Below, piece after piece: positions 9,438 through 27,929 of a stretch of DNA of 33,633 nucleotides. Positions within the stretch are counted from its first letter, which is position 1. Each line of letters starts with the position of its first letter. This DNA comes from an uncultured bacterium (GTDB taxonomy: Bacteria > JADJOY01). Position numbers and translations under genes: made by a program. Where the stretch lies: NCBI GenBank assembly GCA_964392195.1, contig CAYMQR010000003.1:1-33633 (forward strand), in the 5' to 3' direction. The notes under the pieces are model-generated. The model did no database searches, was not told the DNA's origin, and was given only the letters and a program-made list of their open reading frames with translations.

Positions 9438-9474
9438 GACGGTCGTTGCGGGTGTGCCGGGGAAGCCGAGCCGA

Positions 9475-9495
9475 GCGCGGCGAAACCGGCCGCGC
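9475..9495 (-). other. Intercistronic GC hairpin between the flippase-like gene and the YdjM-like gene
   Basis: GCGCGGC (9475-9481) / 7-nt loop / GCCGCGC (9489-9495). It lies within the 72-nt gap. Confidence 0.25.
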
Positions 9496-9509
9496 GGCAG
9501 GCTGCGCGT

Positions 9510-10562: not shown

Positions 10563-10904
10563 GGCGGGTTGGCTGGACCTCGGCGATCGCGGCGACGTGG
10601 GAGTCCGCCGTCGGATCGGCCGTCGCCGCGACGAGCGGGTCCGCGGCTCGCGCTCGCGCGCGCCATCCCCCTCGGCTCTGGCCCTGCGGCGTCGCGAAGC
10701 TACGGCACGATGACGCGCCTTGTCAAACGATCTCGAACCCGCGTCGGTGAGCCGTCCACAACCTCGGCACGGCGCGCGCTGCTTGCGGTGCCCGCGAGGA
10801 CGGCGCTACCATTGATCTTTCGATTCGGTGGCTTCCGAGGCTCCGTCGCGGTCGGGAGCCGAGCTCGAAGCCGCCCCCCTCCCGACGGAGGAATCCGCTA
10901 GCCC
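10563..10904. promoter_or_regulatory. Divergent intergenic control region between the glycan operon (-) and the radical SAM operon (+)
   Basis: At 342 nt this is the largest non-coding gap in the window and is flanked by divergently oriented first genes. I could not identify convincing -35/-10 or -24/-12 boxes by eye. Confidence 0.4.
10830..10891 (+). promoter_or_regulatory. Structured 5' leader of the first radical SAM gene: a bipartite hairpin plus a hairpin that occludes the Shine-Dalgarno sequence
   Basis: In the bipartite hairpin (10830-10872), GGCTTC...GAAGCC encloses GGCTCC...GGAGCC. It is followed by CCTCC (10878-10882) / loop CGAC / GGAGG (10887-10891), where GGAGG is the only SD-like sequence upstream of ATG 10905. 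Confidence 0.3.
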
Positions 10905-13183: not shown

Positions 13184-13237
13184 CGGGCCTCCGTCCGCGT
13201 CACTACCTTGGACCCATCAGTGAGCTCCGGGATCCAG

Positions 13238-14836
13238 ATGACGTCATCCAGTAGCGACGCGGGCGCCAGGATCGCGCTGGTACGCCCGCCGATCCTGAAG
13301 ATGACCCGGAGCTTGAGCTCCTTCGGGGTCATCCTCCCGATCGGGATCGCGTACGTGGCGGCGGTGCTGCGCCGCGAGGGCCACCGGATCCAGGTCCTGG
13401 ACGCGCCGGGGCTGGCGCTCGACACGTTCCGCCCCCAGCCGAGCCCCATCGGGACGCTCGAGCTCAACGGGCTGAACCCGGAGGAGATTGTCGAGCGGAT
13501 CGATGCCGACACCGAGGTGATCGGCATCACCCACATGTTCCTCCACGAGTGGCCGATGGTGCGCGAGATCGCCGAGCGCGCCCGGGCGCGCTTCCCCCGC
13601 GCCACGATCGTGCTCGGCGGTGAGAACGCCACGGCTTACCGCCGGTGGATCTTCCAGCAGACCGACGCGGTCGATTACTGCGTGCTCGGCGAGGGCGAGC
13701 TGACGATGGCCGAGCTGGTGCGCCGGCTCCGCAGCGGCGAGACGGCCGCCGGTCTGCAGGGCGTCGCATCGCGCGACCCATCGTTGCACCTCGGGCAACC
13801 GAGCCTGTCGCCCCGGCAGGTCGACGTCGACTCCTTCCCGCGGCCGGCCTGGGACCTGTTCCCGGTCGAGGGCTACATGAAGGTGGCCGACACCTTCGGT
13901 GTCCACCGCGGCCGCTCGATGCCGATGCTCGCGACGCGTGGTTGTCCATACCAGTGTACGTTCTGCTCGTCGCCCGACATGTGGACCACCCGCTACGTTG
14001 CTCGGGACGCCGCCGACGTCGTCGACGAGATGACCACGTACGTGCGCCGCTACGGGGTCGAGAACATCAACTTCTGCGACCTCACCGCGTTCGTGAAGCG
14101 CGAGTGGGCGCTCGACTTCGTCACCCGGCTGAAGGAAGCCAAGCTCGACATCGCCTGGCAGCTTCCCGCGGGCACCCGCTCCGAGGCCCTCGACCTCGAC
14201 GTCCTGGCGCTCGCTTACGAGACCGGGTGCCGGAACATCACCTACGCACCCGAGAGCGGGTCGGCCGATCAGCTCGGCCGCATCAAGAAGAAGGTCAAGA
14301 TCCCGCGGCTGGAGGAGTCGCTCCGCACCGCCCACAAGGTCGGCGTCGTAACCCGGATCAACCTGATCATCGGTCATCCGCACGAGACTGCGCGCGACCT
14401 GTGGCAGTCCTACCTTTTCTTGCTGCGCGTGGCGCTCTCGGGCTGCCGCGACGCTTCGGTGATGATCTTCGCGCCGTATCCGGGCAGCGCCGACTTCGAG
14501 GAGCTGATGGCGGCGGGCCGGATCGAGATGACGCCGCAGTATCACTACGCGGCGCTGGTCCGCTCCGGGCTCAGCAGCGTCACGTACAACAAGACGTTCG
14601 GCACGCGCGCGCTGTTCGCGATCCAGTACTTCTTCCTGGTGTCCTTCTACGGGCTCGCGTACCTGAGCCGCCCGTGGCGCTTCATCGACCTGGTCCGCAG
14701 CCTCGTCACGGGCCAGGAGACGAGCAACCTCGACACCCTCGTCCGGGTGAAGATCAAGCGCCGGCTCGGGGATCGGCTGAAGCGTGGGCTCGGCGGTAGG
14801 CCGACCGGCGCCGTCACCGTGGCCGAATCAGCGTGA
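13238..14836 (+). CDS. B12-binding-domain radical SAM enzyme (class B), paralogue 2, with a C-terminal hydrophobic helix
   Basis: Motifs seen: IALVRPP...PIGIAYVAAVLRREGHRIQVLD (B12-type domain), CPYQCTFC and YAPESGS. The hydrophobic segment RALFAIQYFFLVSFYGLAYL is at about 14606-14677. ATG 13238 was chosen; the ORF-track TTG 13208 is the alternative. Confidence 0.85.
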   Translation: MTSSSSDAGARIALVRPPILKMTRSLSSFGVILPIGIAYVAAVLRREGHRIQVLDAPGLALDTFRPQPSPIGTLELNGLNPEEIVERIDADTEVIGITHMFLHEWPMVREIAERARARFPRATIVLGGENATAYRRWIFQQTDAVDYCVLGEGELTMAELVRRLRSGETAAGLQGVASRDPSLHLGQPSLSPRQVDVDSFPRPAWDLFPVEGYMKVADTFGVHRGRSMPMLATRGCPYQCTFCSSPDMWTTRYVARDAADVVDEMTTYVRRYGVENINFCDLTAFVKREWALDFVTRLKEAKLDIAWQLPAGTRSEALDLDVLALAYETGCRNITYAPESGSADQLGRIKKKVKIPRLEESLRTAHKVGVVTRINLIIGHPHETARDLWQSYLFLLRVALSGCRDASVMIFAPYPGSADFEELMAAGRIEMTPQYHYAALVRSGLSSVTYNKTFGTRALFAIQYFFLVSFYGLAYLSRPWRFIDLVRSLVTGQETSNLDTLVRVKIKRRLGDRLKRGLGGRPTGAVTVAESA

Positions 14837-15918: not shown

Positions 15919-16030
15919 CGCAACCTCCCTTTCCTGGGTGGGGGATCCGGATTCCGGAGAGCCCAAGGAGGCCGAACGTAGCGGGCGCCGTTCGACCCCG
16001 GCAACCGTGCGCGGAAGGCGTGCTCGAGCA

Positions 16031-16060
16031 CGGCGGAGACTCGTTTCCCGGGCTCCGCCG
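16031..16060 (-). terminator. Hairpin immediately after the REC-PilZ stop codon
   Basis: CGGCGGAG (16031-16038) pairs with CTCCGCCG (16053-16060): 8 bp with a 14-nt loop, starting 1 nt from stop 16062-16064. The perfect palindrome GTGCTCGAGCAC (16020-16031) abuts it. There is no U-tract. Confidence 0.35.
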
Positions 16061-16061
16061 C

Positions 16062-16946
16062 TCAGGTTCCGTCGCCCGCCTCGCGGTCGGGGGATGCGGG
16101 CTCGAGACCTCCGAGGGGCCCGGTCTCGGCTTCCAGCCACGGTGCACGGGCCTTGGCTGCCCCGCCATAGCGTTCCAGGTAGCGAACGATCGCCGCGCGC
16201 GCGACTGCCGGCACGTCCTCGAACTCGAGTCCCATTCCTTCCCGGACCTGGACCTGTGCCCCCCGCTTCCCGCCCACGTTGATCCGCACGACCCGGCCTC
16301 GCAGGGCGAGCTCGGCGTTCGCGCCCGGGAGCACGAACCGCATCGACACCTTGGTGTCGACCGGGAACGGTGCGTCGGTCTCGACGAAGGCGCCAGTCGC
16401 GCTCACGTCGGTGAGCAGCCCCTCTAGCCTCTTGGCGAAGAGCCCGAGCACGACAGGCGCCGCCACGGCGACGCGTGGGTGGCGTCGCTGCTCGGGCCTA
16501 CCCGGGGAGAACGACTCGAGCACCGCCTCGGCGAGGTCCGCCGCGGCCCACGACCTGCTCGCACACCGCGTGATGCCGCACGCCTGGCAGACCTCCGGCG
16601 AGGTCGGGTCGAACGGGTCTTCGACGATCCAGACCGGCACATCGCCGAGCAGACCCTTGGCCTTGAGCCAGCTCAGCACCCCGAGTCCGTCGAACTCGAG
16701 CTGACCGACGTCCACCATCACGAGATCCGCACGGCGCCGCTCGGCCCTGAGCCATTCGTACGCCTCGTCCGGGTCCGCGAGCAGCACCGGCGTGAGCCCG
16801 CGCTCGGCGAGGCGCTCCGGCAACTCGGATCCCCGGGCCAGGCCTTCGCCGACGAGAGCGACACGGGGCGAAGAGCGCTGGCGGTCGGGTTGCATCGATC
16901 GGTGAACGCTCGGCGGCGCGGTGAGGATCCCGGGAGATCGTAGCAT
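16062..16946 (-). CDS. Receiver-like domain + PilZ domain protein (putative c-di-GMP receptor)
   Basis: The C-terminal PilZ motifs are RRHPR (RxxxR) and DVSATGAFV (DxSxxG). The N-terminal CheY-like fold (ADLVMVDV...VPVWIV) has ALVGEG where the usual acidic DD pair sits. The start is ambiguous: ATG 16946 or ATG 16895, neither with an SD. Confidence 0.72.
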   Translation of the reverse strand: MLRSPGILTAPPSVHRSMQPDRQRSSPRVALVGEGLARGSELPERLAERGLTPVLLADPDEAYEWLRAERRRADLVMVDVGQLEFDGLGVLSWLKAKGLLGDVPVWIVEDPFDPTSPEVCQACGITRCASRSWAAADLAEAVLESFSPGRPEQRRHPRVAVAAPVVLGLFAKRLEGLLTDVSATGAFVETDAPFPVDTKVSMRFVLPGANAELALRGRVVRINVGGKRGAQVQVREGMGLEFEDVPAVARAAIVRYLERYGGAAKARAPWLEAETGPLGGLEPASPDREAGDGT

Positions 16947-16999
16947 CCGGGCGCGGGATCGCGGCTCGTGCTTGCGAGCGCTCGGCAGAGAAAGATACG
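16947..16999. promoter_or_regulatory. Short divergent intergenic region (REC-PilZ on the minus strand, seven-gene operon on the plus strand)
   Basis: This is the only non-coding DNA upstream of the 17000-25733 operon. It contains the palindrome CGAGCGCTCG and a small GCTCG/CGAGC hairpin. No consensus promoter was recognised. Confidence 0.3.
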
Positions 17000-18748
17000 G
17001 TGGGCCAGCGGTCCCCCACCGCCTCCCATCTCGTGGATTCCTCGTCGCCGGCCGACCTCGACTGCCTGTTCGTTCACGTCCCCAAAGCGGCGAACCACTA
17101 TCTGCCGCTCGGGGATTTCTTCAACGTGACGTACATGCCGATGGGCCTGCCGGCGCTGGCCGACTGGGCCAACCGCGCCGGCTTCCGGACCGAGATCGTG
17201 CACCTCGGGGTGGAGTGGATCCGCGATCCCGGCTTCGACCTGTTGCGCTGGCTCGACGGCCGCACGGTCCGCGCGTTCGGTCTCCCGCTCTACTGGCACT
17301 ACCAGAGCTACGACGTCATCGAGACCGCGCGCCGGCTCAAGGCGCGCTGCCCCGACTCGTTCGTGTTTCTCGGCGGCCTCACCGCGGGCTACTTCGCGGA
17401 GCAGATCCTGACGCTGGTGCCCGAGATCGACGCGGTCCTCCAGGGACCCGCCGAAGGCGCGATCGTTCCGCTGCTGGAACGCGTGCGCGCCGGCGACGCG
17501 ACCGCGCCCGTCGACGCCTGGGTGCGGGACGCCGACGGCCGGCCGGTTCGCAGGCCGCCGAGCACGACGCGCCCGCCGCTCGACGAGCTCGTGTACGCGA
17601 ACCTCGGCATGATGCGAGGCGCGGACACCTACGCCCAGCTCTTCGGGTTCCCCCTCGCCTACTCCACCGAGCTGCATGCCACCGAGAATCGCGCCCGGCT
17701 CTCCGGCGGGCTAGGGAAGTTTCCGCTCTTCATCGGGCGCGGCTGTCCGTGGAGCTGCACGTTCTGCGGTGGCAACCGCGACACCTTGCGGCGCGTGAAC
17801 GGCACCGCTCACCCCGAGTGGCGCTCCCACGACCGGGTTCTCGCGGACATCCGCCGCGCGATGGGCCACGGCTACCGGGTGGTGTCGACGTGCTTCGATC
17901 CCATTCCCGAGCGCGATGGGTACTTCGTCGACCTGTTCGAGCGGATCGCGCGCGAACGCCTCGACGTCGACTGGTACTTCGAGTGCTGGGGACTGCCGAC
18001 CGAACGCTTCGTCCAGGCGTTCAAGCGAGCGTTCCCCGGTCCGCTCTCCACCATCGCGCTGTCACCCGACGCCGGGAACCAGGCGGTACGGCGCGTGAAC
18101 AAGCAGCCCTACTACGACGACGACGCGCTCTACCGCACGATGCGGATCCTCGAGTCCGCCGAGGTCGCGACCGACGTCTTCTACACGCTCGCGCTTCCGG
18201 GCGAGACGCTCGCCGCGGCCAACGACACGCGCGACCAGATGGCGAGAGTACGGGGGTACCGCAACGCCCGGCGGGTGATGGTCTGGACCGTGCAGCTCGA
18301 GCCGGGTTCACCGCAGTTCGAGCGGCCCGAGGCGTTCCGGATGGAGACGGATCGTCGTTCGTTCCTCGACTACTACCGGGTCCACGGAGGAGCGCACGGC
18401 GACACCTATTCGAGCCTCGGCTTTAAGATCCGCGACTACTTCGGCGACTCCCGCGACGCCGGATCGATCGCCGACTTCGAGACGCGCGTCCAGGCGTACA
18501 AGTGCGCCGACCTGTGCTTCCTCAGCGCCGACCCGCGCGAGCCTGTCGCCGCCGCGAGCGGCCGAGCGCACTGCCTCGAGCGCCGGCGCGAGCTGGCCGC
18601 GCGGCGCGGGTTGCCGCCCCCGGCGCGCACGCTCGGGCCCGGGTACGAGTACGCGGACGCATTCGCCGCCGAGGTCCCGCGCCGCGCGGGCCGGTTCCAC
18701 TGGGTGGCGCCGTCCACCGTTCCGCTCGGCGCCGGGGCGACGCCGTGA
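17000..18748 (+). CDS. B12-binding-type radical SAM enzyme, paralogue 3 (divergent)
   Basis: 582 aa. The N-terminal Rossmann-like domain (LFVHVPK...YMPMGLPALADWANRAGFRTEIVHLG, VFLGGLTAGYF) precedes CPWSCTFCGG. The start is GTG, behind a purine-rich leader. The C-terminal 100 or so residues show no recognisable motif. Confidence 0.78.
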   Translation: MGQRSPTASHLVDSSSPADLDCLFVHVPKAANHYLPLGDFFNVTYMPMGLPALADWANRAGFRTEIVHLGVEWIRDPGFDLLRWLDGRTVRAFGLPLYWHYQSYDVIETARRLKARCPDSFVFLGGLTAGYFAEQILTLVPEIDAVLQGPAEGAIVPLLERVRAGDATAPVDAWVRDADGRPVRRPPSTTRPPLDELVYANLGMMRGADTYAQLFGFPLAYSTELHATENRARLSGGLGKFPLFIGRGCPWSCTFCGGNRDTLRRVNGTAHPEWRSHDRVLADIRRAMGHGYRVVSTCFDPIPERDGYFVDLFERIARERLDVDWYFECWGLPTERFVQAFKRAFPGPLSTIALSPDAGNQAVRRVNKQPYYDDDALYRTMRILESAEVATDVFYTLALPGETLAAANDTRDQMARVRGYRNARRVMVWTVQLEPGSPQFERPEAFRMETDRRSFLDYYRVHGGAHGDTYSSLGFKIRDYFGDSRDAGSIADFETRVQAYKCADLCFLSADPREPVAAASGRAHCLERRRELAARRGLPPPARTLGPGYEYADAFAAEVPRRAGRFHWVAPSTVPLGAGATP

Positions 18749-19998
18749 GCGGCGCGCCAGCGCCGCGGATTCCGGACCGACGCGCCGTCCGCCTGGTCGA
18801 TGCCACGCTTCGCGAGGGCGAGCAGACACCAGGTGTGTGGCTCACGCCGGAGGAGAAGCTCACGATCCTCGAGCTCCTCGGCCAGACCGGGATCGCGCTG
18901 GTCGACGGCTGCTTCCCCGCCGTGTCGGAGGACGAGCGCCGGTTCCTCACGCTCGCCACCGCGCGGCGCGACCTGCCGACCGTCGCCGCCTCGCTGAGGC
19001 TGCGCCTCGAGGAGGTCGAGCTCGCGGCCGATTGCGGCTGCTCGTCGGTGTTCCTCATCGCGCCGGCGAGCGCCGCGCACCGCGAGCTCCGGCTCGGCGG
19101 CGGGCGCGACGACGTCGAGCGCCTCGTCGCCACGCTGGTGGCGCGCTGCGAGGCACTCGCGATCGCGCCGCGCCTCGTGCTCGAGGACGCCAGCCGCGCC
19201 GATCCCGCCGACGTCGCGGCGCTCCTGCGCGCGGGACGAGCGGCGGGGGTCGGGTGCTTCTTCCTTTGCGACACCGTGGGTGTGTGGACGCCCCGGGCGG
19301 CGGCCGCAACGGTGGTCGAGGCCATCGCCACCCTCGGGCCGGGTGTCGAGATCGGTGTCCACTGCCACAACGACTTCGGGATGGCGACGGCGAACACCGT
19401 CGCGGCCATCGAGGCTGGCGCACGCTGCGTGACGGTCACCGTCAACGGCATCGGCGAGCGCGCGGGTCACGCGTCGCTCGCCGAGGTCGCGCTCGCGTGC
19501 ACGGAGATCCTCGGCGTCGACTGCGGCATCGATCCCGCCCGTCTCGCCACGCTCTCCGAGGTGGTCGAGCGGGCGACCGGAATTCCCGTGCCGGTGCAGG
19601 CCCCGGTCATCGGCCCGACGGCCTTCCGGCACGAGTCCGGGATGCATGTACAGGGCGTCCTGCGAGACCCGGCGACGTACGAGCCGATGGAACCCGCGCG
19701 CTTGCGACGGCACCGCGAGTTCGTGGTCGGGAAGCACACCGGACGCGCGCTGTTGCGCGCGATCGCCGACAAAAGGGGGCTGGTCGTCGACGAAGCGGTG
19801 CTGGCTCGCGCGCTCGAGCGGCTGAAGGAGGCGCGCCCGGCCGCGCGCGCCGCGGCCTTCGAGCGCTTCCGGCGCGAGCGCGATCGCTACCTGGCGCTCG
19901 CGCTCGGCCTGCCTCTCGATGTCGCCGAACGGTTGCTCCTCGAGTGCGGCGCCCGTCCCTCCCCGTCGACCGAGCCCGCCGCCCGCACGGCGGTCTGA
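18745..19998 (+). CDS. Homocitrate synthase / 2-alkylmalate synthase family enzyme (HMGL-like DRE-TIM), short form without a LeuA regulatory domain
   Basis: The ORF 18502..19998 was trimmed to GTG 18745 (GTGA overlap with the rSAM stop). Motifs seen: DATLREGEQ, VHCHNDFGMATANTVAAIEAGA, NGIGERAGHA and FRHESGMH. The length of about 417 aa matches NifV/AksA-type enzymes. Confidence 0.85.
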   Translation: MSGAPAPRIPDRRAVRLVDATLREGEQTPGVWLTPEEKLTILELLGQTGIALVDGCFPAVSEDERRFLTLATARRDLPTVAASLRLRLEEVELAADCGCSSVFLIAPASAAHRELRLGGGRDDVERLVATLVARCEALAIAPRLVLEDASRADPADVAALLRAGRAAGVGCFFLCDTVGVWTPRAAAATVVEAIATLGPGVEIGVHCHNDFGMATANTVAAIEAGARCVTVTVNGIGERAGHASLAEVALACTEILGVDCGIDPARLATLSEVVERATGIPVPVQAPVIGPTAFRHESGMHVQGVLRDPATYEPMEPARLRRHREFVVGKHTGRALLRAIADKRGLVVDEAVLARALERLKEARPAARAAAFERFRRERDRYLALALGLPLDVAERLLLECGARPSPSTEPAARTAV

Positions 19999-20007
19999 GC
20001 GGCACCC

Positions 20008-21312
20008 ATGCTGGTTGCGCGGACCCTCGTCGAGAAGATCCTCGCGCCTAGATCGCGCGGACCGGTGGTCACCGGAAGCCGCTACCACGCGATCGAGGTC
20101 GATCTCGTGCTCGCCCACGACGCCACGTTCACGCTCGGGATCGACCGCATCGAGCGCCTCGGCCTGCCGATGCCCGGCGCGCAGAAGCTGCTCTTCGCCG
20201 CCGATCACTTCGCGCCGCCGTCGAGCCCCGAGCGCGCCGCGATCCTGGGACGCTACGTCACCTTCCTGGGCGAGCGTGGATTGCCGCGTGACCAGCTCTT
20301 CCGTGGCATCAGTCACCAGCTCGCCGTCGAGGATCCACGGGCGGTCCCTGGGAGCGTGGTGGTCGGGGCCGACTCGCACACCACGATGATCGGCGCGCTC
20401 GGCTGCTTCGCGACGGGCTTCGGCACCACCGACATCCTGGCGGTGCTCGCCACCGGCACCGCCTTCCTGGAGATCCCCGCGTCGATCGAGCTCGTGGTGC
20501 GTGGCCAGCCGGATCCGGTGATCGAGGGGAAGGACCTCGCGCTCGAGATGCTCTCGCTGCTCGGCGAGGACGGGGGGCTCGGCCACGCGATCGAGGTCCA
20601 CGACCGTACCGCGGCCGGCATCGGCTTCGACGCGCGCTGCGCCATCACCAACCAGGCCGTCGAGGCGGGCGCGACCAGCGCGGCGTTCGTGCCCGACGCG
20701 GTCACGGCGCGGTATCTGGCCTCCCGCGACGGCGTCGAGACCCGTGATCTCGAGCGGTGGCGGCCCGATCCGGATGCGAGCTATGCCCGCACGCTCTCGC
20801 TCGACGCGTCGTCGCTGGCGCCGCGGGTCGCGCGACCTGGCTCGCCCGCGGACGTCGTGCCGGTCGCGGAGGTGGCCGGCGAGCCGATCCAGCAGGCGTT
20901 CGTGGGATCCTGCGCGGGTGGCCGTGTGAGCGAGATCGAGGCCGCCGCGGCCATCGTGCGGGGCCGCCGGATCGCCCCGGGCGTGCGCATGGTGGTCACC
21001 CCGGCGAGCGAGCAGGTGTGGCGCGCGACGTCGCGAAGTGGCGCTCTCGAGACGCTCAGCGAGGCCGGCGCGCTCGTCACCAACCCGTCGTGCGGAGCCT
21101 GCGGCGGGATCGACAAGGGCCTCCTCGCGGCCGGGGAGCTCTGCATCAGCACGTCGAATCGCAACGGTCCCGGGCGCATGGGGCACCGCGATGCCCGCAT
21201 CATGCTCGCCAGCGCCGCGACCGTGGCGGCCTCGGCCGTGACGGGACGCGTGACCGACCCTCGCCAACTCGCCGCCGCTGGGTCCGCCGTTCCCTCTCCG
21301 GTGCTCGCGTGA
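20008..21312 (+). CDS. Aconitase-family dehydratase large subunit (LeuC/HacA-like)
   Basis: 434 aa. GADSHTTMIGALG is present. The Fe-S ligand motifs are VGSCAGGR and NPSCGACGG. The size is that of the split archaeal-type large subunit. Confidence 0.88.
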   Translation: MLVARTLVEKILAPRSRGPVVTGSRYHAIEVDLVLAHDATFTLGIDRIERLGLPMPGAQKLLFAADHFAPPSSPERAAILGRYVTFLGERGLPRDQLFRGISHQLAVEDPRAVPGSVVVGADSHTTMIGALGCFATGFGTTDILAVLATGTAFLEIPASIELVVRGQPDPVIEGKDLALEMLSLLGEDGGLGHAIEVHDRTAAGIGFDARCAITNQAVEAGATSAAFVPDAVTARYLASRDGVETRDLERWRPDPDASYARTLSLDASSLAPRVARPGSPADVVPVAEVAGEPIQQAFVGSCAGGRVSEIEAAAAIVRGRRIAPGVRMVVTPASEQVWRATSRSGALETLSEAGALVTNPSCGACGGIDKGLLAAGELCISTSNRNGPGRMGHRDARIMLASAATVAASAVTGRVTDPRQLAAAGSAVPSPVLA

Positions 21313-21842
21313 GCACGCCGGTGCACCGAGCCCCCCGAGAGGCTGGCCGCCTGCGTGGGCGTGCGCTCGTGCTCGGCGAACACGTCAACGCGGACCTCCT
21401 GCATCCGCCCGCGTTCTTCTCGCTCGACGCGGCGCGTGTCCGATCCGGCTTTCTCGCCGGGCTCGGCTGGGAGGACCGGCCGGGCACCCTCGACAGCCGC
21501 TGGATCGTCGTGGCGGGGCGGAACTTCGGCTGTGGCTCGAGCCGCGAGACCACGGTGGACGCTCTCCGGCGTGGCGGCGTGGTCGCCGTCGTGGCGCCGA
21601 GCTTCGGGCGCATCTTCCAGCGCACGGCCACCGCGCTCGGGTTGCCATGCTTCACCACCGCCGACACGGCGACGCTCGCCTCGATCCAGCCGCACTCGCT
21701 GGTCGAGCTCGATCCGTCCGCGCCGTCTCTCGTCGCCGCTGAGCGTGGCCTCCGGGTCGCGCTCGACCGGCCAGATCCATTTCTCGAGGCGGTCCGTGAC
21801 GCAGGCGGGCTGCTCGAATGGCTCGGGCACCAGCGCCCATGA
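21309..21842 (+). CDS. Aconitase-family dehydratase small subunit (LeuD/HacB-like)
   Basis: The ORF 20757..21842 was trimmed to GTG 21309 (GTGA overlap). The GRNFGCGSSRE motif is present. The product is about 177 aa. Confidence 0.85.
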   Translation: MSTPVHRAPREAGRLRGRALVLGEHVNADLLHPPAFFSLDAARVRSGFLAGLGWEDRPGTLDSRWIVVAGRNFGCGSSRETTVDALRRGGVVAVVAPSFGRIFQRTATALGLPCFTTADTATLASIQPHSLVELDPSAPSLVAAERGLRVALDRPDPFLEAVRDAGGLLEWLGHQRP

Positions 21843-23149
21843 CGGCCATTCGAAGCGGGCGTCGCCCGTACGACTACGACGTCGCGGTGGTCGGGGCGGG
21901 ACCGGCCGGGCTTGCCGCTGCGATCCGAGCCCGCTGGCTCAAGGGGTTCGATCCATGGCCGAGCAGCGTCGTGGTCTTCGACCCAGGGCCTCTCGGCGGG
22001 CTCGGCCGCTGGGGCTCCTGCGTCCTGACCGGACCCGGGTGGTCACTCTCCGGCGCCGAGCTGACCGATCGTCTCGCGGCGGATGTCCGGGGCCTCGCCA
22101 TCCCGGTGCTCCGGGAAGCCGTGACGCGCGTGGTGCGGGACGGCCCGTATCTGGTGCTGCGTGCTGGCGACCGCGACGTGCGGACGCTCGCGATCGTGCT
22201 CGCCTCGGGCTTGAGGACCCTCGCGAACGAGGATCGGCACTTCCCCGACGGAGTGATCATCGCCATGAAGGGGCGGGCACACCTCCGATCGCTCGTCGGG
22301 CGCGCCATCGAAGCCGGCCGCAGGGACGGGTTGGTCGTGGTCGGGAACGCTCACACCGCGCTGCTCGTGCCGGTCTTCGCCGAGCTCGGCGGCTCGGTCC
22401 GGATCCGGTGGGTGGTCGAGCCCTCGACCACCGCCACCTCGAGCACCCACGGCGAGGTGCCCACCGCGCTTCCCCACCCCACCCTGCACGGCCGGCTGGT
22501 CGCGGTCGAGGGCGACGAGCAGGTGGCAGGCGTGACGATCGCGACCGCCGACGGCCCGGTCCACCTCCCCTGCAGCGGCGTCTTCATCGATTATCACGCC
22601 TTCGAGATCCGGCCCGCGGTGTCGGTCGAAGGCCTCGGCCACCTGGGCATCCGAGCCACCGGGGAAGGATTCGTGGAGACGGACTCGTGGAACGAGACGC
22701 GGGCGCCCGGCATCTTCGCCGCCGGTGACGTGACCGGTCGCTACGCCTCCACGCTCACCGCCCTCGGGGATGGAGTGAGCGCGGGGTTCGGCGCTCACCG
22801 CCACGCCTTCCGCGCCAAGTTCGGTGTCGAACCCGACCTGTTCGCCTACCGCGGCCTGGCGCGGCCGCTGGCGCCGGACGGGGAACGGGGGCCCGCGATC
22901 GCCGAAGACGACGTGCCGGTGCTCGTCGGCGTGGCGCACCGCGCCCGCGCGGTGCTCGAGCGTGTGTTGTCCCCGGCGGCGGCGAGCGAGGTGGTCGGCA
23001 CGATCGGCGCCCACGACTCGTCCGTTGCCGAGCTCCGTGCCCGGGCCGACCTGCCACGCGCCGTCCTCGAGGCCGCGCTGCGTGCGGGCATCCAGGCTCG
23101 CGAGATCGTCCTCCACCGCGAGCCAGCGCCCGCGAGCGCCGCACCGTGA
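21839..23149 (+). CDS. FAD-dependent oxidoreductase with a thioredoxin-reductase-like fold; lacks a CxxC redox pair and carries a C-terminal extension
   Basis: ATG 21839 forms an ATGA overlap with the upstream stop. FAD motifs are VAVVGAGPAGLAAA and GIFAAGDVTG. The second dinucleotide site reads LVVVGNAHTALL, a degenerate GxGxxG/A. No CxxC is found anywhere in the catalytic region. The last 110 or so residues have no motif I recognise. Confidence 0.7.
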   Translation: MTAIRSGRRPYDYDVAVVGAGPAGLAAAIRARWLKGFDPWPSSVVVFDPGPLGGLGRWGSCVLTGPGWSLSGAELTDRLAADVRGLAIPVLREAVTRVVRDGPYLVLRAGDRDVRTLAIVLASGLRTLANEDRHFPDGVIIAMKGRAHLRSLVGRAIEAGRRDGLVVVGNAHTALLVPVFAELGGSVRIRWVVEPSTTATSSTHGEVPTALPHPTLHGRLVAVEGDEQVAGVTIATADGPVHLPCSGVFIDYHAFEIRPAVSVEGLGHLGIRATGEGFVETDSWNETRAPGIFAAGDVTGRYASTLTALGDGVSAGFGAHRHAFRAKFGVEPDLFAYRGLARPLAPDGERGPAIAEDDVPVLVGVAHRARAVLERVLSPAAASEVVGTIGAHDSSVAELRARADLPRAVLEAALRAGIQAREIVLHREPAPASAAP

Positions 23150-24297
23150 GCCAGTCCCCCTCCGACGACCGGGTAGGCGACGAGCGCGGTCGGCTCACGC
23201 GGCGCGTGCTCGCGGCGATCCGGGTCGAGAGCACCGGATCGCCCGGGTCCGCCACCGATTGGAACTCCCTCGCGCTCGAGGTGTTCGCGTTCCAGTTCCG
23301 CGCGATGCCGGTGTTCGGCGGCTGGTGCGAGGCGCGGGGGATCGCGCCGGCGCGCGTCCAGACCCCGTGGCAGATCCCGGCGGTGCCCACCGAGGCGTTC
23401 AAGCATCTGCCGCTGTTCGCCGGCGACCCCGCCGACGTCACGCGGACGTTCCGCACCAGCGGGACGTCCAGCCTGGAGGCGCGCGGCGCCGCGCACTTCA
23501 GCTTGGCGGGTCTCGAGCTGATGGACGCGGCGATCGACGTGCGGGCCCGGCAGATGCTCTTCCCCGACCTCGATCGGACCCGGATCGTGGCCCTCGCCCC
23601 GCCGCCGGAGGCCGACCCGGAGCGCGTCATGGCGTACGGGATCCGCCGCCTCGTGACCACCTTCGGGAGGGATGCGGGAACCTTCCTCGTCGGTCCCGCC
23701 GGGCTCGACGTCGGCCGCGCCGTGGAGACGCTACGCGAGGCGTCCAGCGCGCGAGAGCCGGTCACCGTCGCGGGTGCGACATCGGCGCTCGCCGCGGTGC
23801 TCGCGTCCCTCACCCTCGCGGACGACGGCGTGAAGCTCCCACCCGGCTCGCGCGTCATGCACGCGGGCGGACAGAAGCGAGGGGCCGCGCCGGTGGAGCC
23901 CACGCGACTTCGAGAGGAGGTCGCTCGCTGGCTCGGCGTGCCCGAGACTCGCTGCGTGAACCTGCTCGGCATGACCGAGCTCGCGAGCCAGCTCTACGAC
24001 GATACGATCCGCGCAGCGGCCGCCGGCGCGCGGCCCCGGCGAGGCAAGGTGCCGCCGCCGTGGTGCCGGACCTGGGTCACCGATCCCGCGAGTCCCGAGC
24101 CCCTTCCGCACGGCGCCGTGGGCCTGCTTCGCCACCTCGATCTGGCCAATGTCGAGCGGCCCGTCTGCGTGCAGACCGATGATCTCGGTCTCACTTACGA
24201 CGACGGCAGCTTCGAGATCCTCGGGCGCGCCGCCGGCGCCGAGGCGCGCGGCTGCGCGCTCGACCTCGACGAGTGGCGATCCATGGCGGCACCGTGA
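23146..24297 (+). CDS. LuxE-family acyl-protein synthetase (carboxylate-activating, AMP-forming)
   Basis: GTG 23146 forms a GTGA overlap. It aligns by eye with Vibrio LuxE. IPAVPTEAFK...TFRTSGTSS corresponds to IPVFPTSVFK...WFTSSGTNG. VPPPWCRTWVTDPASPEPLPHGAVGLL corresponds to [27 protein letters not shown]. The C-terminal RGCALDL (Cys codon 24253-24255) corresponds to the acylated KGCALSL. Confidence 0.82.
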   Translation: MSQSPSDDRVGDERGRLTRRVLAAIRVESTGSPGSATDWNSLALEVFAFQFRAMPVFGGWCEARGIAPARVQTPWQIPAVPTEAFKHLPLFAGDPADVTRTFRTSGTSSLEARGAAHFSLAGLELMDAAIDVRARQMLFPDLDRTRIVALAPPPEADPERVMAYGIRRLVTTFGRDAGTFLVGPAGLDVGRAVETLREASSAREPVTVAGATSALAAVLASLTLADDGVKLPPGSRVMHAGGQKRGAAPVEPTRLREEVARWLGVPETRCVNLLGMTELASQLYDDTIRAAAAGARPRRGKVPPPWCRTWVTDPASPEPLPHGAVGLLRHLDLANVERPVCVQTDDLGLTYDDGSFEILGRAAGAEARGCALDLDEWRSMAAP

Positions 24298-25733
24298 TGC
24301 CGGCGGTCGTCGAGTCGGGATGGATCCCGCCCGCGCTCGGCGAGGCGACCGACGCGACCGAACAGGTCCGGTGGCGCACCCCCGCTGGCGAGGACGCCGA
24401 GGTACGGCGGCCCGCGCTGTCGCCGGCCCGGCTCGCGTCCCTGGCGCGAGGGCTGCGGGAGGTGGGCCGGCGGTGCCTGGCCGCGCGGCCGATCGCGGGG
24501 ATCGTCGACAGCCTCGAGCGCGTCGCGCAGCTCTGGCTCGACCCGGCGACTCCCGAGCGTCGCCAGGCGATCGACCAGATCGCGTGGGCGAGCGGCTTCT
24601 CGAGGGAGATGGTGGCGCATGCGATCGACCTCGAGTTCGAGTCGAGCCGCGGTCCCCACCTCTGGCGCGCGCTGGAGGCCGAGCTGGGGGCTCCAGCGAG
24701 CCTCGACACGTTCGTCTTCGACGCACGGCTGGGCGGACACCTGCGCGCCTTCGGCCCCGAGCTGGTGGGCGGCATCGCGAGCGCCAACATCCCCGGCCTG
24801 CCCCACCTGATCGCGACGCGGGCGTTCCTCGTCAAGGCCCCGTGCCTGGTCCGTACCTCGCGCGACGAGCCGGTCTTCTTGCCGCTGTTCGCTCGCACAC
24901 TCGCTCGCGTGGACGAGGACCTCGCGGCTTGCCTCGCGGTCGTCGACTTCGATCCTCACGATGGCGCGCTCGACGCCGCATTCCTGGCGGGAATCGATCA
25001 CCTCGTCGCGTTCGGCGGCGTCGACGCGCTCGCGTCGCTGCGCGCGCGCCTGCCTCCGCGCGTCACCGCCACCTGGCACGGGCATCGCCTCGGGTTCGGC
25101 GTCGTGGCGCGCGAGGCCCTCGCAGCCGATCTGACCGACCTCGCGGACCGCATCGCCTACGACTTCTCGCTCTACGACCGCGAGGCCTGCCTCAGCCCGC
25201 AGGCGCTCTTCGTCGAGGAGGGAGGCGAGCGCTCACCGCGGGAGCTCGCACGCGCGATCGCCTCCGCCATGGAGCGCTGGCTCGAGCGGTTGCCGGCGTG
25301 CCGGTTTCCGCTCGCCGAGCGAGGCCGCTTCCGCACCGCGGTCGAGCTGGTCGGGCTGCGCTCGGCCGCCGGCGAGAACGTCGAGGTCGTGGCGGACGGA
25401 GCCGGCTACGCCGTGGTCCTCGAGCGGCCCGCGCCTCTCGACGCGGCGCCCCGCGGCCGGTTCGTACGTATCATGCCGGTCCCGGATGTCGCGCGGGTAC
25501 CGGGCCTCGTTGCATCGCTCGGCCCGTACCTGCAGGTGGCGTTCGTGGAGGGCGACGAGCACCGCTCCGAGCATCTTCGACACGCCCTCGCCCGGATGGG
25601 CGTCACGCGGATCACGCGCGCTGGACTGGCGGGCTTGCCGTCGATGATGTGGCGACACGACGGCGTCGCCTGCCTGGCAGCGCTCGTGCGCTGGGTCACC
25701 GACGAGCGGAGCGCGCCCCGGGATCGGCTATGA
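24294..25733 (+). CDS. LuxC-family acyl-CoA/acyl-protein reductase (aldehyde-forming)
   Basis: The start is GTG 24294 (GTGA overlap) or ATG 24297. The product is about 480 aa, and its layout is that of the LuxC/ALDH-like family. A candidate catalytic Cys lies in YDREACLSPQALFV. The gene is positioned immediately after the LuxE homologue. Confidence 0.7.
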   Translation: MMPAVVESGWIPPALGEATDATEQVRWRTPAGEDAEVRRPALSPARLASLARGLREVGRRCLAARPIAGIVDSLERVAQLWLDPATPERRQAIDQIAWASGFSREMVAHAIDLEFESSRGPHLWRALEAELGAPASLDTFVFDARLGGHLRAFGPELVGGIASANIPGLPHLIATRAFLVKAPCLVRTSRDEPVFLPLFARTLARVDEDLAACLAVVDFDPHDGALDAAFLAGIDHLVAFGGVDALASLRARLPPRVTATWHGHRLGFGVVAREALAADLTDLADRIAYDFSLYDREACLSPQALFVEEGGERSPRELARAIASAMERWLERLPACRFPLAERGRFRTAVELVGLRSAAGENVEVVADGAGYAVVLERPAPLDAAPRGRFVRIMPVPDVARVPGLVASLGPYLQVAFVEGDEHRSEHLRHALARMGVTRITRAGLAGLPSMMWRHDGVACLAALVRWVTDERSAPRDRL

Positions 25734-26960
25734 GCCGCCGGCGCGCCTCTCGCTCCAGTCCTCCACGCGTGGGCACTCGGGATCCGGTCGAAACGGATCG
25801 CCGGTGAGGTACCGAGAGACCGCCCTGCACCCGCCTCCGCAGATCGAGAGGTAGGTACAGCTCGCGCACGGCTCCCCGGCCGAGTCGCGATGGTTCCGGT
25901 AGCGAACCAGCGCGTCCGCGGAATCCCACTCCGCGGCCAACCCGCCGGGGAGGACGCGGCCATCCTCCAGGAAGCTGCAGGCGTGGGTGCGCCCGACCGC
26001 GTCGACCGAGGCCAGGTGATGCCCCGCTTCGCACCCGAGCATGCCGAGGAGCCGCATGCGGTCGAGGTCGGGTCCGTGGTGGCAGGCCATCGGTAGGAAC
26101 GAGCAGTCGATCCGGGGCCGAACCCGCGCATTGCGAGCGATGGCCAGGATCCGGGGATAGACCTCGCGGGCCTGCTCCCGCGTGAGGACGCGCTGCCGGT
26201 AGTCGGTCGCGCCCCGCCCGGTGGGCTTGAGACGCAGGAACTCGATCTCGCGGACTCCGAGGCGCCGCACGGCGCGCGCGAGCTCGTCCAGGCGGTCGAC
26301 GTTCTGGCGCGTCACCACGCAGTTCACCCCGGTCCGCACCCGCGCGCGCCTCAGCACCTCGAGAGCCCTGGCCGCGAGCTGCCACGAGCCCGGCGGCCGG
26401 CCCGCTGCGTCGTCCCACCCGGACAGGCCGTCGACGCTGACGTTGACCTGGCCGAAGACCCGCGAGCGCCGTGCCAGCTCGCTCGTCATGCCGAGGCCGC
26501 TGGTGGTGACGTTGGGCACGATCCCGAGGGTCCGTGCGTGCCTCGCGATCTCGAAGAGGTCGCTGCGTAGGTACGACTCGCCGCCGCCCATCGCGATGTG
26601 AAGCACCCCCGCGGCGGCGAGATCGTCGAGCATCGCGCATACGGCCGCGGTCGAGAGCTCGCCCGGCGAGGGCTCGGCCGCGTCCACGTAACAACCGCGG
26701 CACCCGATCGGACACGCGCGGGTCAGCGTGAGGTGCACCTCCGTCGGAGCCGAGAGCGTCTTTCGCGATGACGCCCAGCGCGGATGGTCGCGGAAGCCGA
26801 GGCGCCGCAGGAACGCGTGGTCGACGAACGCCAGAAGCGGCGGACGCTCGAGGGCCACGATGCCGCCGAACGACTCGAAGCGGATCCGCACGCCGAGCCC
26901 GCCGAGCACACGACGGAGCCACGACGAGGGCGCGGATCGCCACGCGGCACGGCCCGTCAC
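25728..26960 (-). CDS. Radical SAM enzyme with a C-terminal SPASM/twitch-type auxiliary cluster domain
   Basis: 410 aa. The radical SAM motif is CPIGCRGCY. GGGESYL is present. The Cys-rich C-terminus reads CSFL...CHHG...CEAG...CSF...CASCTYLSICGGGCRA. About 75 aa precede the core (IRFESFGGIVALERPPLLAFVDHAFLRRLG). The GTG start at 26960 is uncertain, with GTG 26891 as the alternative. Confidence 0.82.
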   Translation of the reverse strand: MTGRAAWRSAPSSWLRRVLGGLGVRIRFESFGGIVALERPPLLAFVDHAFLRRLGFRDHPRWASSRKTLSAPTEVHLTLTRACPIGCRGCYVDAAEPSPGELSTAAVCAMLDDLAAAGVLHIAMGGGESYLRSDLFEIARHARTLGIVPNVTTSGLGMTSELARRSRVFGQVNVSVDGLSGWDDAAGRPPGSWQLAARALEVLRRARVRTGVNCVVTRQNVDRLDELARAVRRLGVREIEFLRLKPTGRGATDYRQRVLTREQAREVYPRILAIARNARVRPRIDCSFLPMACHHGPDLDRMRLLGMLGCEAGHHLASVDAVGRTHACSFLEDGRVLPGGLAAEWDSADALVRYRNHRDSAGEPCASCTYLSICGGGCRAVSRYLTGDPFRPDPECPRVEDWSERRAGGS

Positions 26961-26994
26961 GGACGTCGAACCCGAGGTCGTGGTGCGCTCGACG

Positions 26995-27306
26995 TCAGCG
27001 TCGCGGCTGTCCGACGGGGTTCACGAACAGATCGACGGGCTGGAAGCGGTCGCGGTAGCGGCCGAGGTACTCACCGGTCTGGTCGGTGAAGTGCGTGACT
27101 CCCGCGGAGTCGACCCACACGTACACGGCGCTCTCCGTGTGTGCACCGGTGCCCGGTGAAAAATCCACGGCCGGCGCGCCGACGGTGTTGAGTCCAGACG
27201 CGCTCGGGCTCGGCGGGCTCCACGCGCGTGCGCCGCGTGGCGCCACGACCACGGCGCCGGCCACGAGAGCGGCGAGGCAGAGGTGGGATGACGAACGGTC
27301 GCGCAT
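26995..27306 (-). CDS. Small secreted DUF4124-like protein
   Basis: 103 aa. ATG 27306 has a strong GGGAGGAGGG RBS. A signal-peptide-like N-terminus (HLCLAALVAGAVVVAPRGARA) is followed by the VYVWVDSAGVTHFTDQ motif typical of DUF4124. Confidence 0.6.
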   Translation of the reverse strand: MRDRSSSHLCLAALVAGAVVVAPRGARAWSPPSPSASGLNTVGAPAVDFSPGTGAHTESAVYVWVDSAGVTHFTDQTGEYLGRYRDRFQPVDLFVNPVGQPRR

Positions 27307-27380
27307 CAGCGCCCTCCTCCCGGAAGGCGCCCGCAGGATAATCCGATCGCCGCGGCGAAGGCGACGGCCAGGCGCCGGGC

Positions 27381-27794
27381 TCAGCCCGGGTCGCTACCGT
27401 CGACGGCCCGGATCTGGACCGCCACGGCGCCCTGCCTTCCCTTCGCGCGGGCGCCCGCCGTTCGGCGACGACGCTGTCGCATGAGCTGCTCGTAGAGCGT
27501 CTGCCGCTCCTTGAGCTCGACCTCGAGATCCTTCCGCTCGCGCTTCGCTTGCTCGAGCCAGTCTAGGATGACCCCGCGCTCGACCTCGGTCGACACCGTC
27601 CGCAGCTCCTCGACGAGGAACTGGATCTGCCAGCTCTGCCTGCGGACCCGGGTCGGGATCTCGCCGAGCTCCTTGCGCAGCTCGGCAGGCGTGGGCTCGG
27701 AACGCGGCACCGGCGTTTCGCTCGCCGGACGGCGTCCTCCTCGCGCCTTGGCCGGAACACGAGGCGCTACGGCGTGTGAACGATTGCCAGGCAT
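27381..27794 (-). CDS. Hypothetical basic coiled-coil protein (about 137 aa)
   Basis: The ORF 27381..28286 was trimmed to ATG 27794, which has a GGAGGAG RBS. The charged heptad-like region reads QFLVEELRTVSTEVERGVILDWLEQAKRERKDLEVELKERQTLYEQLMRQ. I recognise no family. Confidence 0.45.
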   Translation of the reverse strand: MPGNRSHAVAPRVPAKARGGRRPASETPVPRSEPTPAELRKELGEIPTRVRRQSWQIQFLVEELRTVSTEVERGVILDWLEQAKRERKDLEVELKERQTLYEQLMRQRRRRTAGARAKGRQGAVAVQIRAVDGSDPG

Positions 27795-27899
27795 TGGCTC
27801 CTCCGCATGTTGCCCCCACCGACCGATGAAGCAACCGGAATGCCAGGGCCGGGCGATGCGGACGAGCGCGAAAACGGCAATGCTGTCGGGAACGGCCGC

Positions 27900-27929
27900 T
27901 CGCCGGTGCCGACCTCGCGGCACCGGCGA
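27900..27929 (-). terminator. Perfect GC hairpin downstream of the MCP gene
   Basis: TCGCCGGTGCCG (27900-27911) pairs with CGGCACCGGCGA (27918-27929): about 12 bp with a 6-nt loop, 74 nt after stop 28003. The nearest T-run (GCCGTTTTCG) is about 25 nt further on the minus strand. Confidence 0.45.

Follow-up and report, generated by a model that had tools for sequence, protein, structure and literature searches.

The window analyzed here is a 33,633-nucleotide stretch of DNA from an uncultured bacterium (contig CAYMQR010000003.1). It carries an operon of seven genes encoding a cobalamin-type radical S-adenosylmethionine (radical-SAM) protein, a Claisen condensing enzyme resembling homocitrate synthase (below, the synthase), the large and small subunits of an aconitase-type isomerase, a flavoprotein, and proteins resembling LuxE and LuxC. 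The enzyme families are known; what is new is their combination into one operon without a characterized counterpart. An earlier note on this DNA had stated that no known pathway combines these parts, and a literature search likewise found no characterized cluster or paper on this gene set; the main claim of that note, a coherent operon without a characterized counterpart, stands. The seven genes recur in order in at least five phyla and therefore probably serve one uncharacterized pathway, and this conservation makes the operon more significant than one genome had suggested. On balance, we favor the reading that the cassette is a widespread uncharacterized biosynthetic unit found in uncultured bacteria, most of them anaerobes or inhabitants of soil and sediment, in which a substituted malate would be built, isomerized, and then reduced at one carboxylate to an aldehyde.

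Organization of the operon

The operon spans positions 17000–25733 on the plus strand (Table 1). Third-position GC indicated one coding frame per region and supported all seven genes, in a window with approximately 72% G+C. Five of the six junctions are 4-nt overlaps (GTGA at 18745, GTGA at 21309, ATGA at 21839, GTGA at 23146, and GTGA at 24294), and the sixth, between the genes for the synthase and the large isomerase subunit, is a 9-nt gap that separates positions 19998 and 20008. These are exactly the junctions listed in the earlier note, which had gone on to read them as a sign of stoichiometric co-translation. This over-reads the overlaps, which are ordinary for operons in high-G+C DNA and support one transcript with translational coupling, and nothing beyond that. 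Three genes have in-frame alternative starts (ATG 21818, GTG 24273, and ATG 24297). Consensus scans revealed no σ70-like promoter in positions 16000–27500 and no terminator-like site inside the operon, the sole such site lying at approximately 27170–27183 on the minus strand; no riboswitch or other RNA family (Rfam) was found in the window.

Every domain assignment of the earlier note was borne out by Pfam, the B12-binding hit being subthreshold, and none of the seven proteins reached an NCBIfam equivalog cutoff.

Table 1. Genes of the operon, in order.
Product	Position	Strand	Length	Basis
Cobalamin-type (class B) radical-SAM enzyme, first operon gene	17000..18748	+	582 aa	Pfam, AlphaFold/Foldseek
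Homocitrate/isopropylmalate-synthase-like Claisen condensing enzyme, short form	18745..19998	+	417 aa	HMGL-like + HCS_D2
Aconitase-family [4Fe-4S] (de)hydratase/isomerase large subunit, LeuC/HacA type	20008..21312	+	434 aa	Aconitase
Aconitase-type small subunit, LeuD/HacB type	21309..21842	+	177 aa	Aconitase_C
Flavoprotein, thioredoxin-reductase fold	21839..23149	+	436 aa	Pyr_redox_2, AlphaFold/Foldseek
LuxE-like adenylate-forming acyl-protein synthetase	23146..24297	+	383 aa	Pfam LuxE
LuxC-like acyl-thioester reductase, aldehyde-dehydrogenase superfamily	24294..25733	+	479 aa	Pfam LuxC

Distribution and modularity of the cassette

A search with the LuxE-like protein of the window, for which an exact-protein look-up gave no record, returned 614 relatives, nearly all from metagenomes or metagenome-assembled genomes. 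When one genome per species was scanned, 436 of approximately 185,000 species genomes were found to encode a LuxE-like relative. The best 80 of these 436 are all metagenome-assembled genomes; they include Myxococcota (Kofleriaceae and Polyangiaceae), Thermodesulfobacteriota (Syntrophaceae, Syntrophorhabdus, and Desulfobacteraceae), Acidobacteriota (Blastocatellia and Chloracidobacterium), Gemmatimonadota (Longimicrobium), and Hydrogenedentota.

Gene arrangements were determined by tblastn, using the window proteins against 82 non-redundant loci from metagenome-assembled genomes (Table 2). The complete set of seven genes was found in approximately 37 of the 82 loci and in 13 of the approximately 21 clusters into which the LuxE-like proteins of these loci fall (average linkage, 55% identity); a metagenome scan anchored on the radical-SAM protein yielded further complete cassettes. 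LuxE identity across the seven-gene loci is 39–68%. Contigs at 41–46% LuxE identity have unrelated flanks, with genes for, for example, a cold-shock protein, a PIN toxin, a helicase, a protein kinase, or transposases, yet carry an identically ordered set of the seven genes; distant copies also show the 4-nt overlaps. The earlier note had predicted that HMGL-like and aconitase-family genes would be found together with luxC and luxE in other genomes, and this was seen on a large scale. A lack of synteny beyond this genome, which the note had named as a refutation, does not apply, since the synteny spans at least five phyla.

The arrangements vary by module, and clustering of the flanking open reading frames (ORFs) found no other conserved partner gene except Peptidase_U32. 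We conclude that the cassette is real, stands on its own, and is built from modules: a synthase–isomerase module, a flavoprotein–LuxE–LuxC module, and a mobile, dispensable radical-SAM gene, which is shifted or absent in other loci. Of the proposal that the seven genes form a single pathway, the operon stands and the indivisible unit does not, as there is a five-gene core (synthase, both isomerase subunits, LuxE, and LuxC) to which a flavoprotein tied to luxE–luxC and a dispensable radical-SAM gene are added. Being compact and self-contained, the five-gene core is directly testable by heterologous expression.

Table 2. Gene arrangements among the 82 loci (R, radical-SAM; H, synthase; L and S, large and small aconitase-type subunits; F, flavoprotein; E, LuxE-like; C, LuxC-like).
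Arrangement	Occurrence
R-H-L-S-F-E-C (seven genes, order of the window)	33 loci
H-L-S-R-F-E-C	3 loci
F-E-C-R-H-L-S (luxE–luxC half first)	1 locus
H-L-S-E-C (core only)	6 loci, and 2 outside that tally
H-L-S-F-E-C	1 uncut (L035), and 3 cut by contig ends
F-E-C	3 uncut, and 2 cut by contig ends
L-S-F-E-C	2 uncut, and 3 cut by contig ends
E-C or E alone	Gemmatimonadota clades

The Peptidase_U32 gene lies directly 3′ of luxC in one Desulfobacterota clade (57–96% LuxE identity); one or two U32-family genes follow luxC in Desulfobacterota, sometimes with extra cobalamin radical-SAM genes nearby. Some loci show insertions of unrelated genes into the cassette, encoding an amidase, a transposase, a nucleotidyltransferase/HepT pair, or a β-helix protein. 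In locus L027, an unrelated amidase/Golvesin_C protein is encoded between luxE and luxC. The same place is occupied in Blastocatellia/Chloracidobacterium-type copies by the gene for a 605-aa β-propeller protein (L089, 11440–13257; L042, 11273–13087), which has no Pfam hit and gives weak matches to YVTN/PQQ repeats. The Gemmatimonadota/Longimicrobium loci L063–L086 contain the LuxE-like gene alone or together with a LuxC-like gene whose product is only approximately 30% identical to LuxC of the window. The synthase and isomerase genes are not nearby in these loci; the neighbors, which encode an EamA transporter, an NlpC/P60 protein, and a TPR protein, give no hint of function, and a recurrent upstream gene is a histidine kinase.

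The condensing enzyme and the aconitase-type isomerase

The synthase consists of an HMGL-like domain (198 bits) and an HCS_D2 domain (63 bits) and lacks the regulatory domain. Its scores stay below the NCBIfam cutoffs for NifV (313 vs 463), the LeuA type (310 vs 517), LysS (239 vs 414), and CimA (137 vs 450), and, among solved structures, it comes nearest to the homocitrate synthase of Sulfolobus (6ktq). The TLREGEQ and HxH motifs reported in the earlier note are present, the latter as H-C-H, and both are conserved across 48 orthologues as LREGEQ (LRDGEQ or LREGDQ in some) and H-C-H (H-F-H in two).

The positions that select the substrate were examined in an alignment with checked numbering. 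Throughout the synthase family, the position of His72 of Thermus homocitrate synthase (TtHCS) is occupied by Ser or Thr and that of Ser135 by Val or Ala, while that of Arg133 varies (R, Q, N, H, E, D, or S). We take these three residues to be those that hold the distal carboxylate of 2-oxoglutarate in the Thermus and yeast homocitrate synthase structures. Citramalate and isopropylmalate synthases have Leu and Tyr or Ser at the equivalent positions. Judged from the alignment, the pocket appears uncharged and not narrowed, and roomier than that of enzymes specific for pyruvate or 2-oxoisovalerate, from which its residues also seem to differ; the 2-oxoacid is probably not 2-oxoglutarate. An acidic substrate, first suggested by an Arg in β5, was dropped because this Arg is unconserved in the family.

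The large isomerase subunit matches the Aconitase domain with 268 bits and exceeds the cutoff of a subfamily model (NF001614, 408.8 vs 385), without reaching an equivalog. The Cys ligands described as intact in the earlier note are indeed present: Cys302, Cys362, and Cys365 are invariant, as is the GADSHT motif, in 50 orthologues. In the small subunit (Aconitase_C, 52 bits), the GSSRE motif is conserved in nearly all of 54 sequences, with the catalytic Ser262 present in 53. Nearly all 54 also share a substrate loop of the form LHP[SP]x[FYH][FY][ST], which differs from the corresponding loop of the methanogen homoaconitase subunit (YLRT) and of the isopropylmalate isomerase subunit (YLVY); the Arg that binds the distal carboxylate of homocitrate is replaced. 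This replacement, together with Ser/Thr for His72 and Val/Ala for Ser135 in the synthase, disfavors the citrate- or homocitrate-type, acidic substrate that the earlier note had envisaged.

The homology of synthase and isomerase could also reflect a redundant or variant route to a primary amino acid, namely leucine, isoleucine via citramalate, or lysine via α-aminoadipate with LuxE/LuxC in the role of Lys2. The fungal α-aminoadipate lysine route does join homocitrate synthase and homoaconitase to an adenylating carboxylate reductase (Lys2, an A-PCP-R enzyme), so that Claisen condensation, aconitase-type isomerization, and ATP-dependent reduction of a distal carboxylate to a semialdehyde, in this order, would be common to it and the cassette. 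Unlike that route, the cassette would use the cysteine thioesters of LuxE/LuxC and has no dehydrogenase, aminotransferase, or saccharopine enzyme, and the residues that recognize an acidic side chain, including the distal-carboxylate Arg and those at the His72 and Ser135 positions, are replaced in its enzymes. The missed equivalog cutoffs, the patchy spread over 436 species genomes of approximately 185,000, and the linkage to a radical-SAM tailoring enzyme likewise speak against primary metabolism, which we consider extremely unlikely; a housekeeping role in leucine or lysine synthesis was rejected on the missed cutoffs and the altered specificity residues.

The LuxE-like and LuxC-like proteins

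The LuxE-like protein matches Pfam LuxE weakly (37.5 bits) and scores 45.9 against an NCBIfam LuxE cutoff of 550; for the LuxC-like protein, the Pfam LuxC score is 234 bits, and the NCBIfam LuxC score is 66.8, against a cutoff of 750. HMMER scores to the solved Photobacterium proteins (7XC6) are weak as well (50 and 45 bits). Cys370 of the LuxE-like protein aligns with the near-C-terminal cysteine of Photobacterium LuxE (7xc6_E) and is invariant in 79 relatives, as are the SGT motif, Lys244, and the GMTE motif. Cys306 of the LuxC-like protein aligns with the conserved Cys of the LuxC “yd..aC” motif (7xc6_A) and is invariant in 71 relatives. A review names LuxE Cys364 (numbering of Photobacterium phosphoreum) and LuxC Cys296 as the two thioester-carrying residues, the former acyl-carrying and the latter catalytic (PMC12041015), and we take these to be the 7XC6 cysteines in the alignments. 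Catalytic residues were invariant or nearly so in all five enzyme families checked.

The cassette thus has the two-protein architecture, the adjacent genes, the adenylation motifs, and both acyl cysteines in common with LuxC–LuxE of luminous bacteria. It differs from the lux system in lacking luxD and luxAB and in missing the LuxE and LuxC equivalog cutoffs. Since luxE and luxC are embedded in a malate-type acid pathway, the substrate of the pair is probably a short polar di-acid rather than myristate.

One alternative is that the pair is a fatty-acid reductase that supplies fatty aldehydes for ether or other unusual membrane lipids, with the synthase and isomerase making branched primers and the radical-SAM enzyme methylating alkyl chains. 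The sole characterized LuxC–LuxE acts on fatty acids (PMC12041015). Hopanoid-associated-type genes lie upstream in the window (an HpnJ-like radical-SAM gene, glycosyltransferases, and LPG_synthase_TM), a block with two GT2 genes, a B12 radical-SAM gene, and a CDP-alcohol phosphatidyltransferase gene lies downstream of the cassette in L006, and distant radical-SAM paralogues adjoin genes for an MMPL transporter and a phytoene-desaturase-like flavoprotein. The carrier phyla are also known for ether and branched lipids. Such lipid-like neighbors occur, however, in only two to three of approximately 20 clades, and the genes conserved with the cassette include none for an acyl carrier protein, a ketosynthase, an acyltransferase, or glycerol lipids. 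Tight coupling of luxE–luxC to a malate-type synthase and isomerase makes no lipid sense, and the LuxE and LuxC scores are far under the lux equivalog cutoffs. A lipid pathway is therefore, in our judgment, quite improbable.

The flavoprotein

The flavoprotein matches Pyr_redox_2 with 48 bits and the thioredoxin reductase (TrxR) equivalog model with 65, against a cutoff of 343. Its AlphaFold model (predicted local distance difference test score, pLDDT, 92) has the fold of a low-molecular-weight TrxR, and the top Foldseek matches are a ferredoxin-dependent flavin thioredoxin reductase (FFTR), low-molecular-weight TrxR, and a TrxR-type FNR, with E = 1e-19 to TrxR and FFTR. The FAD-binding motif is present (GAGPAG, matching GxGxxG), the NAD(P)H motif is degenerate (GNAHTA in place of GxGxxA), and no redox-active CxxC occurs anywhere in the sequence. 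The protein has an extra C-terminal helical domain, comprising approximately residues 330–436. The family is sharply set apart: 35 clusters besides the query score at least 156 bits, and the next score, 66 bits, belongs to ordinary TrxRs. Loci checked within the high-scoring group carry the cassette.

Six loci (L035, L053, L056, L075, L077, and L078) contain the flavoprotein gene without a radical-SAM gene; the protein is therefore not merely the reductase of the radical-SAM enzyme, and a role as mere redox partner of that enzyme was ruled out. The flavoprotein gene always lies immediately upstream of luxE, and this fixed place suggests that the flavoprotein works with the LuxE–LuxC module.

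The cobalamin radical-SAM protein

The first protein of the operon matches Pfam Radical_SAM with 41 bits and B12-binding with 26.2 bits, below the cutoff of 32.1; its homologues carry PF02310. Its best NCBIfam match is TIGR04190 (129 bits vs a cutoff of 500). The CxxxCxxC motif (C249/C253/C256) is invariant in 43 sequences. A sequence search against the PDB gave nothing, and structural matches came from the fold search only: Foldseek ranked TsrM, CysS, MgmA, and TokK first for the AlphaFold model (pLDDT 91), which matches TsrM, CysS, and TokK along its entire length and aligns with TsrM over 549 columns. To these class B methyltransferases, the template modeling (TM) score is approximately 0.5–0.57 at approximately 15% identity. 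They share with the cassette protein the radical-SAM barrel with CxxxCxxC, and the N-terminal part of the model is a candidate for a Rossmann-type cobalamin domain like theirs. On the strength of the modeled fold, the enzyme is likely a C-methyltransferase tailoring the product. None of the 148 relatives found gives a functional clue, as all are metagenome proteins with a generic name or no name.

Three further cysteines in the C-terminal helical domain, C502, C506, and C525, are invariant in the 43 homologues and set the protein apart from the class B methyltransferases compared; their invariance points to an additional site for a metal or an Fe-S cluster. More distant paralogues (36–39% identity) of this gene were also seen in the metagenome loci L118–L169, in two settings. 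In the first, the paralogue follows a Peptidase_U32 gene, in loci that also encode a sigma-54 two-component system and a Liv-type ABC transporter; in the second, it follows genes for an amine-oxidase/phytoene-desaturase-like flavoprotein and an MMPL transporter. In L144 and L124, the order is luxE, luxC, U32, and the paralogue, and in L116, the paralogue directly follows luxC. These contexts say little about the substrate of the cassette.

Proposed pathway and alternatives

For the substrate, the order of the steps, the role of the flavoprotein, the methylation, and the product, we infer the following scheme. The synthase would condense acetyl-CoA with a non-canonical, probably neutral 2-oxoacid to give a 2-substituted malate, which the two-subunit Fe-S isomerase may dehydrate or isomerize to a substituted maleate or a 3-substituted malate. 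With no oxidative decarboxylation encoded in the cassette, at least two carboxylates would stay in place. The LuxE-like enzyme would then adenylate one of them with ATP and load it as a thioester on its own C-terminal Cys370; from there, the acyl group would move to Cys306 of the LuxC-like reductase, which would release the aldehyde with NAD(P)H. The flavoprotein may carry out an accessory redox step on the LuxE–LuxC module; it might, for instance, saturate or desaturate a C=C bond of the acid, either free or tethered to an enzyme, with ferredoxin as a possible electron donor. As optional tailoring, the cobalamin radical-SAM enzyme could attach one or more C-methyl groups. The end product would be a small branched aldehyde, either as such or as a lactol or butenolide, and is most likely a specialized rather than a primary metabolite. 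Further ideas considered for the cassette were an alternative route to pantoate, the formation of an isoprenoid-like C5 unit from citramalate, and a cyclization yielding a naphthoate.

The earlier note had listed a β-decarboxylating dehydrogenase, luxAB, and luxD as lacking from the operon, and there are none in the window: Pfam found no Iso_dh, luciferase, LuxD, or PEP (phosphoenolpyruvate)-mutase domain in any window gene. The absence of the dehydrogenase extends further, since a signature pattern of isocitrate/isopropylmalate dehydrogenases was found in none of 3799 ORFs from the window and the 82 loci, and the Pfam annotations of nine contexts contain no Iso_dh domain. Because approximately 45 cassettes are without a dehydrogenase, decarboxylation would seem to be no part of the pathway.

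The established 2-oxoacid elongation modules (LeuA/LeuCD/LeuB; AksA/AksDE/AksF of methanogens, for coenzyme B; and HphA/HphCD/HphB of cyanobacteria, for homophenylalanine) likewise use an acetyl-CoA-dependent DRE-TIM Claisen synthase followed by a two-subunit aconitase-type isomerase. The cassette enzymes retain the catalytic Ser of this pair along with its metal ligands and Fe-S cysteines. In contrast to the elongation modules, the cassette has no β-decarboxylating dehydrogenase, differs in the substrate-selecting residues, and adds a carboxylate-to-aldehyde reductase that is absent from the Leu, Aks, and Hph pathways. By analogy, it may be described as a truncated 2-oxoacid elongation module joined to a LuxC–LuxE-type reductase.

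Elongation itself is the standard job of a synthase–isomerase pair, as established for LeuABCD, AksADEF, and HphABCD, and the cassette might still serve it: with a host isopropylmalate dehydrogenase, the pair would add a CH2 group, and LuxE/LuxC would reduce the one carboxylate left in the lengthened keto or amino acid to a keto or amino aldehyde. The 2-oxoacid could then be an arylpyruvate, as in the homophenylalanine, homotyrosine, coenzyme B, and glucosinolate pathways, and the apparently uncharged, roomy pocket of the synthase would allow this. Blastocatellia-type copies offer further points of contact. Their core lies inside a same-strand gene run, with a hisC-type aminotransferase gene 55 nt upstream of the synthase gene (TIGR01141, 324 bits vs a cutoff of 276) and, after luxC, genes for an FAD enzyme, a Methyltransf_2 methyltransferase, and a Trp_halogenase-family flavoenzyme, which fit an amino-acid-derived, possibly aromatic scaffold. 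However, the aminotransferase gene could be a housekeeping hisC, and outside one lineage this gene and the tailoring genes are represented only by halogenase and X666 homologues in L047, so that lineage synteny may account for them. None of the approximately 45 cassettes has a dehydrogenase gene beside it, whereas known dedicated elongation clusters usually carry one. We regard chain elongation followed by reduction as unlikely, though deserving of attention.

The lineage-restricted tailoring sets also provide a lead to a more elaborate version of the proposed pathway. The U32 family includes the O2-independent hydroxylases UbiU, UbiV, and TrhP. The set seen in anaerobes (U32-family proteins and cobalamin radical-SAM methylases) and that of the aerobic Blastocatellia-type copies (FAD monooxygenase- or halogenase-type enzymes and a SAM methyltransferase) could be the anaerobic and aerobic versions of the same hydroxylation and methylation tailoring, a pairing that mirrors the two versions of ubiquinone biosynthesis and would suggest an sp2-rich, possibly aromatic scaffold. 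The cassette would then be the core of a previously unrecognized, oxygen-independent route to a decorated, possibly aromatic or butenolide-like specialized metabolite of many uncultured sediment and soil bacteria, with the LuxE–LuxC chemistry, which is known only from fatty acids, acting on a short substituted malate, maleate, or succinate and with separate tailoring sets for anaerobes and aerobes. We put this forward as a speculative idea with a rather small chance of being right.

There is precedent for a synthase–isomerase pair that has no dehydrogenase of its own. Two phosphonate pathways, those to pantaphos (hvr cluster of Pantoea ananatis) and to phosphinothricin (Pms, Pmi, PhpK), combine an alkylmalate synthase with an aconitase-type isomerase or dehydratase in this way; the former adds a flavoenzyme, and the latter adds a cobalamin radical-SAM methyltransferase. 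The cassette resembles this logic. Those clusters lack LuxE/LuxC, whereas the window has no PEP mutase or any other phosphonate gene, and phosphonate biosynthesis was ruled out because PEP mutase is absent from the window genes. The cassette flavoprotein, with its TrxR fold and its occurrence in strict anaerobes, also differs from the pantaphos flavoenzyme.

Several points weigh against the proposed build–isomerize–reduce pathway. The carriers are all metagenome-assembled genomes. The only biochemically studied LuxC–LuxE pair acts on fatty acids. The view of the synthase pocket depends on a small number of positions in the alignment and on the roles ascribed to the reference residues, and the role given to the flavoprotein is a guess. 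Host LeuB could supply the decarboxylation and turn the first steps into a chain-elongation cycle. Finally, the structural neighbors of the radical-SAM protein include the non-methylases AprD4 (a dehydratase) and OxsB, and cobalamin radical-SAM enzymes such as OxsB and BchE are known to run non-methylating reactions.

If the proposed pathway is correct, it would represent a new biosynthetic logic, in which malate-type chain building without decarboxylation is followed by carboxylate reduction through a cysteine relay. The LuxC–LuxE pair would gain a second role, outside luminescence and fatty acids. There would be five new enzyme subfamilies with distinct substrate signatures, and a metabolite whose producers, all uncultured, would number hundreds of species and span at least five phyla.

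Genomic neighborhood in the window

Upstream of the cassette lies a cluster of the surface-polysaccharide type, with genes for UDP-glucose dehydrogenase, a priming sugar transferase, four GT4 and two GT2 glycosyltransferases, and two further B12 radical-SAM proteins, all within 16 kb. FBPase and PilZ genes on the opposite strand stand between this glycan cluster and the cassette. Downstream, converging on luxC, are genes for a SPASM radical-SAM protein, a DUF4124 protein, a chemoreceptor, HU, a MaoC-like dehydratase, an enoyl-CoA hydratase, and DnaK. This wider neighborhood was seen only in close relatives with 57–68% LuxE identity (L001, L002, L007, and L011).

The upstream genes raise the possibility that the cassette product decorates the glycan of this surface-polysaccharide or glycolipid locus, and the shared neighborhood of the close relatives is in keeping with it. 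In other clades, however, the flanks are unrelated, and in the window, the opposite-strand FBPase and PilZ genes separate the cassette from the glycan genes, leaving this role little probability. Similarly, the earlier note had proposed that the aldehyde is attached to an amine or a sugar; the support for this is weak and lineage-specific.

Within the upstream region, the GT4-rich polysaccharide cluster (275–7844) adjoins a hopanoid-associated-like block (7861–14836) that encodes a GT2 glycosyltransferase, YdjM, an LPG_synthase_TM protein, an HpnJ-like B12 radical-SAM protein (257 bits vs a cutoff of 577), a second GT2, and a second, Sden_1168-like B12 radical-SAM protein (164 vs 575). The comparable block in L006, which is on the downstream side of the cassette at a distance of 1.5 kb, comprises genes for GT2, B12 radical-SAM, GT2, and CDP-alcohol phosphatidyltransferase.

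The SPASM radical-SAM gene (25728–27900 region, minus strand) converges on luxC with a 6-nt overlap of the stop codons. Its best match is the mycofactocin maturase model (161 bits vs a cutoff of 265), and it is preceded on its own strand by genes for a small DUF4124 protein and an unannotated ORF. This trio, which may be a peptide-modification unit, is kept only in the close lineage (L001, L002, L007, L008, and L011).

Among the close relatives, L001 (GCA_016713535.1, JADJOY010000008.1) is labeled “Deltaproteobacteria bacterium.” Its gene calls give the radical-SAM gene as two pieces and miss the flavoprotein and LuxC, yet tblastn finds them with 75–84% identity; assembly frameshifts are a more likely cause of this broken-up cassette than real decay.

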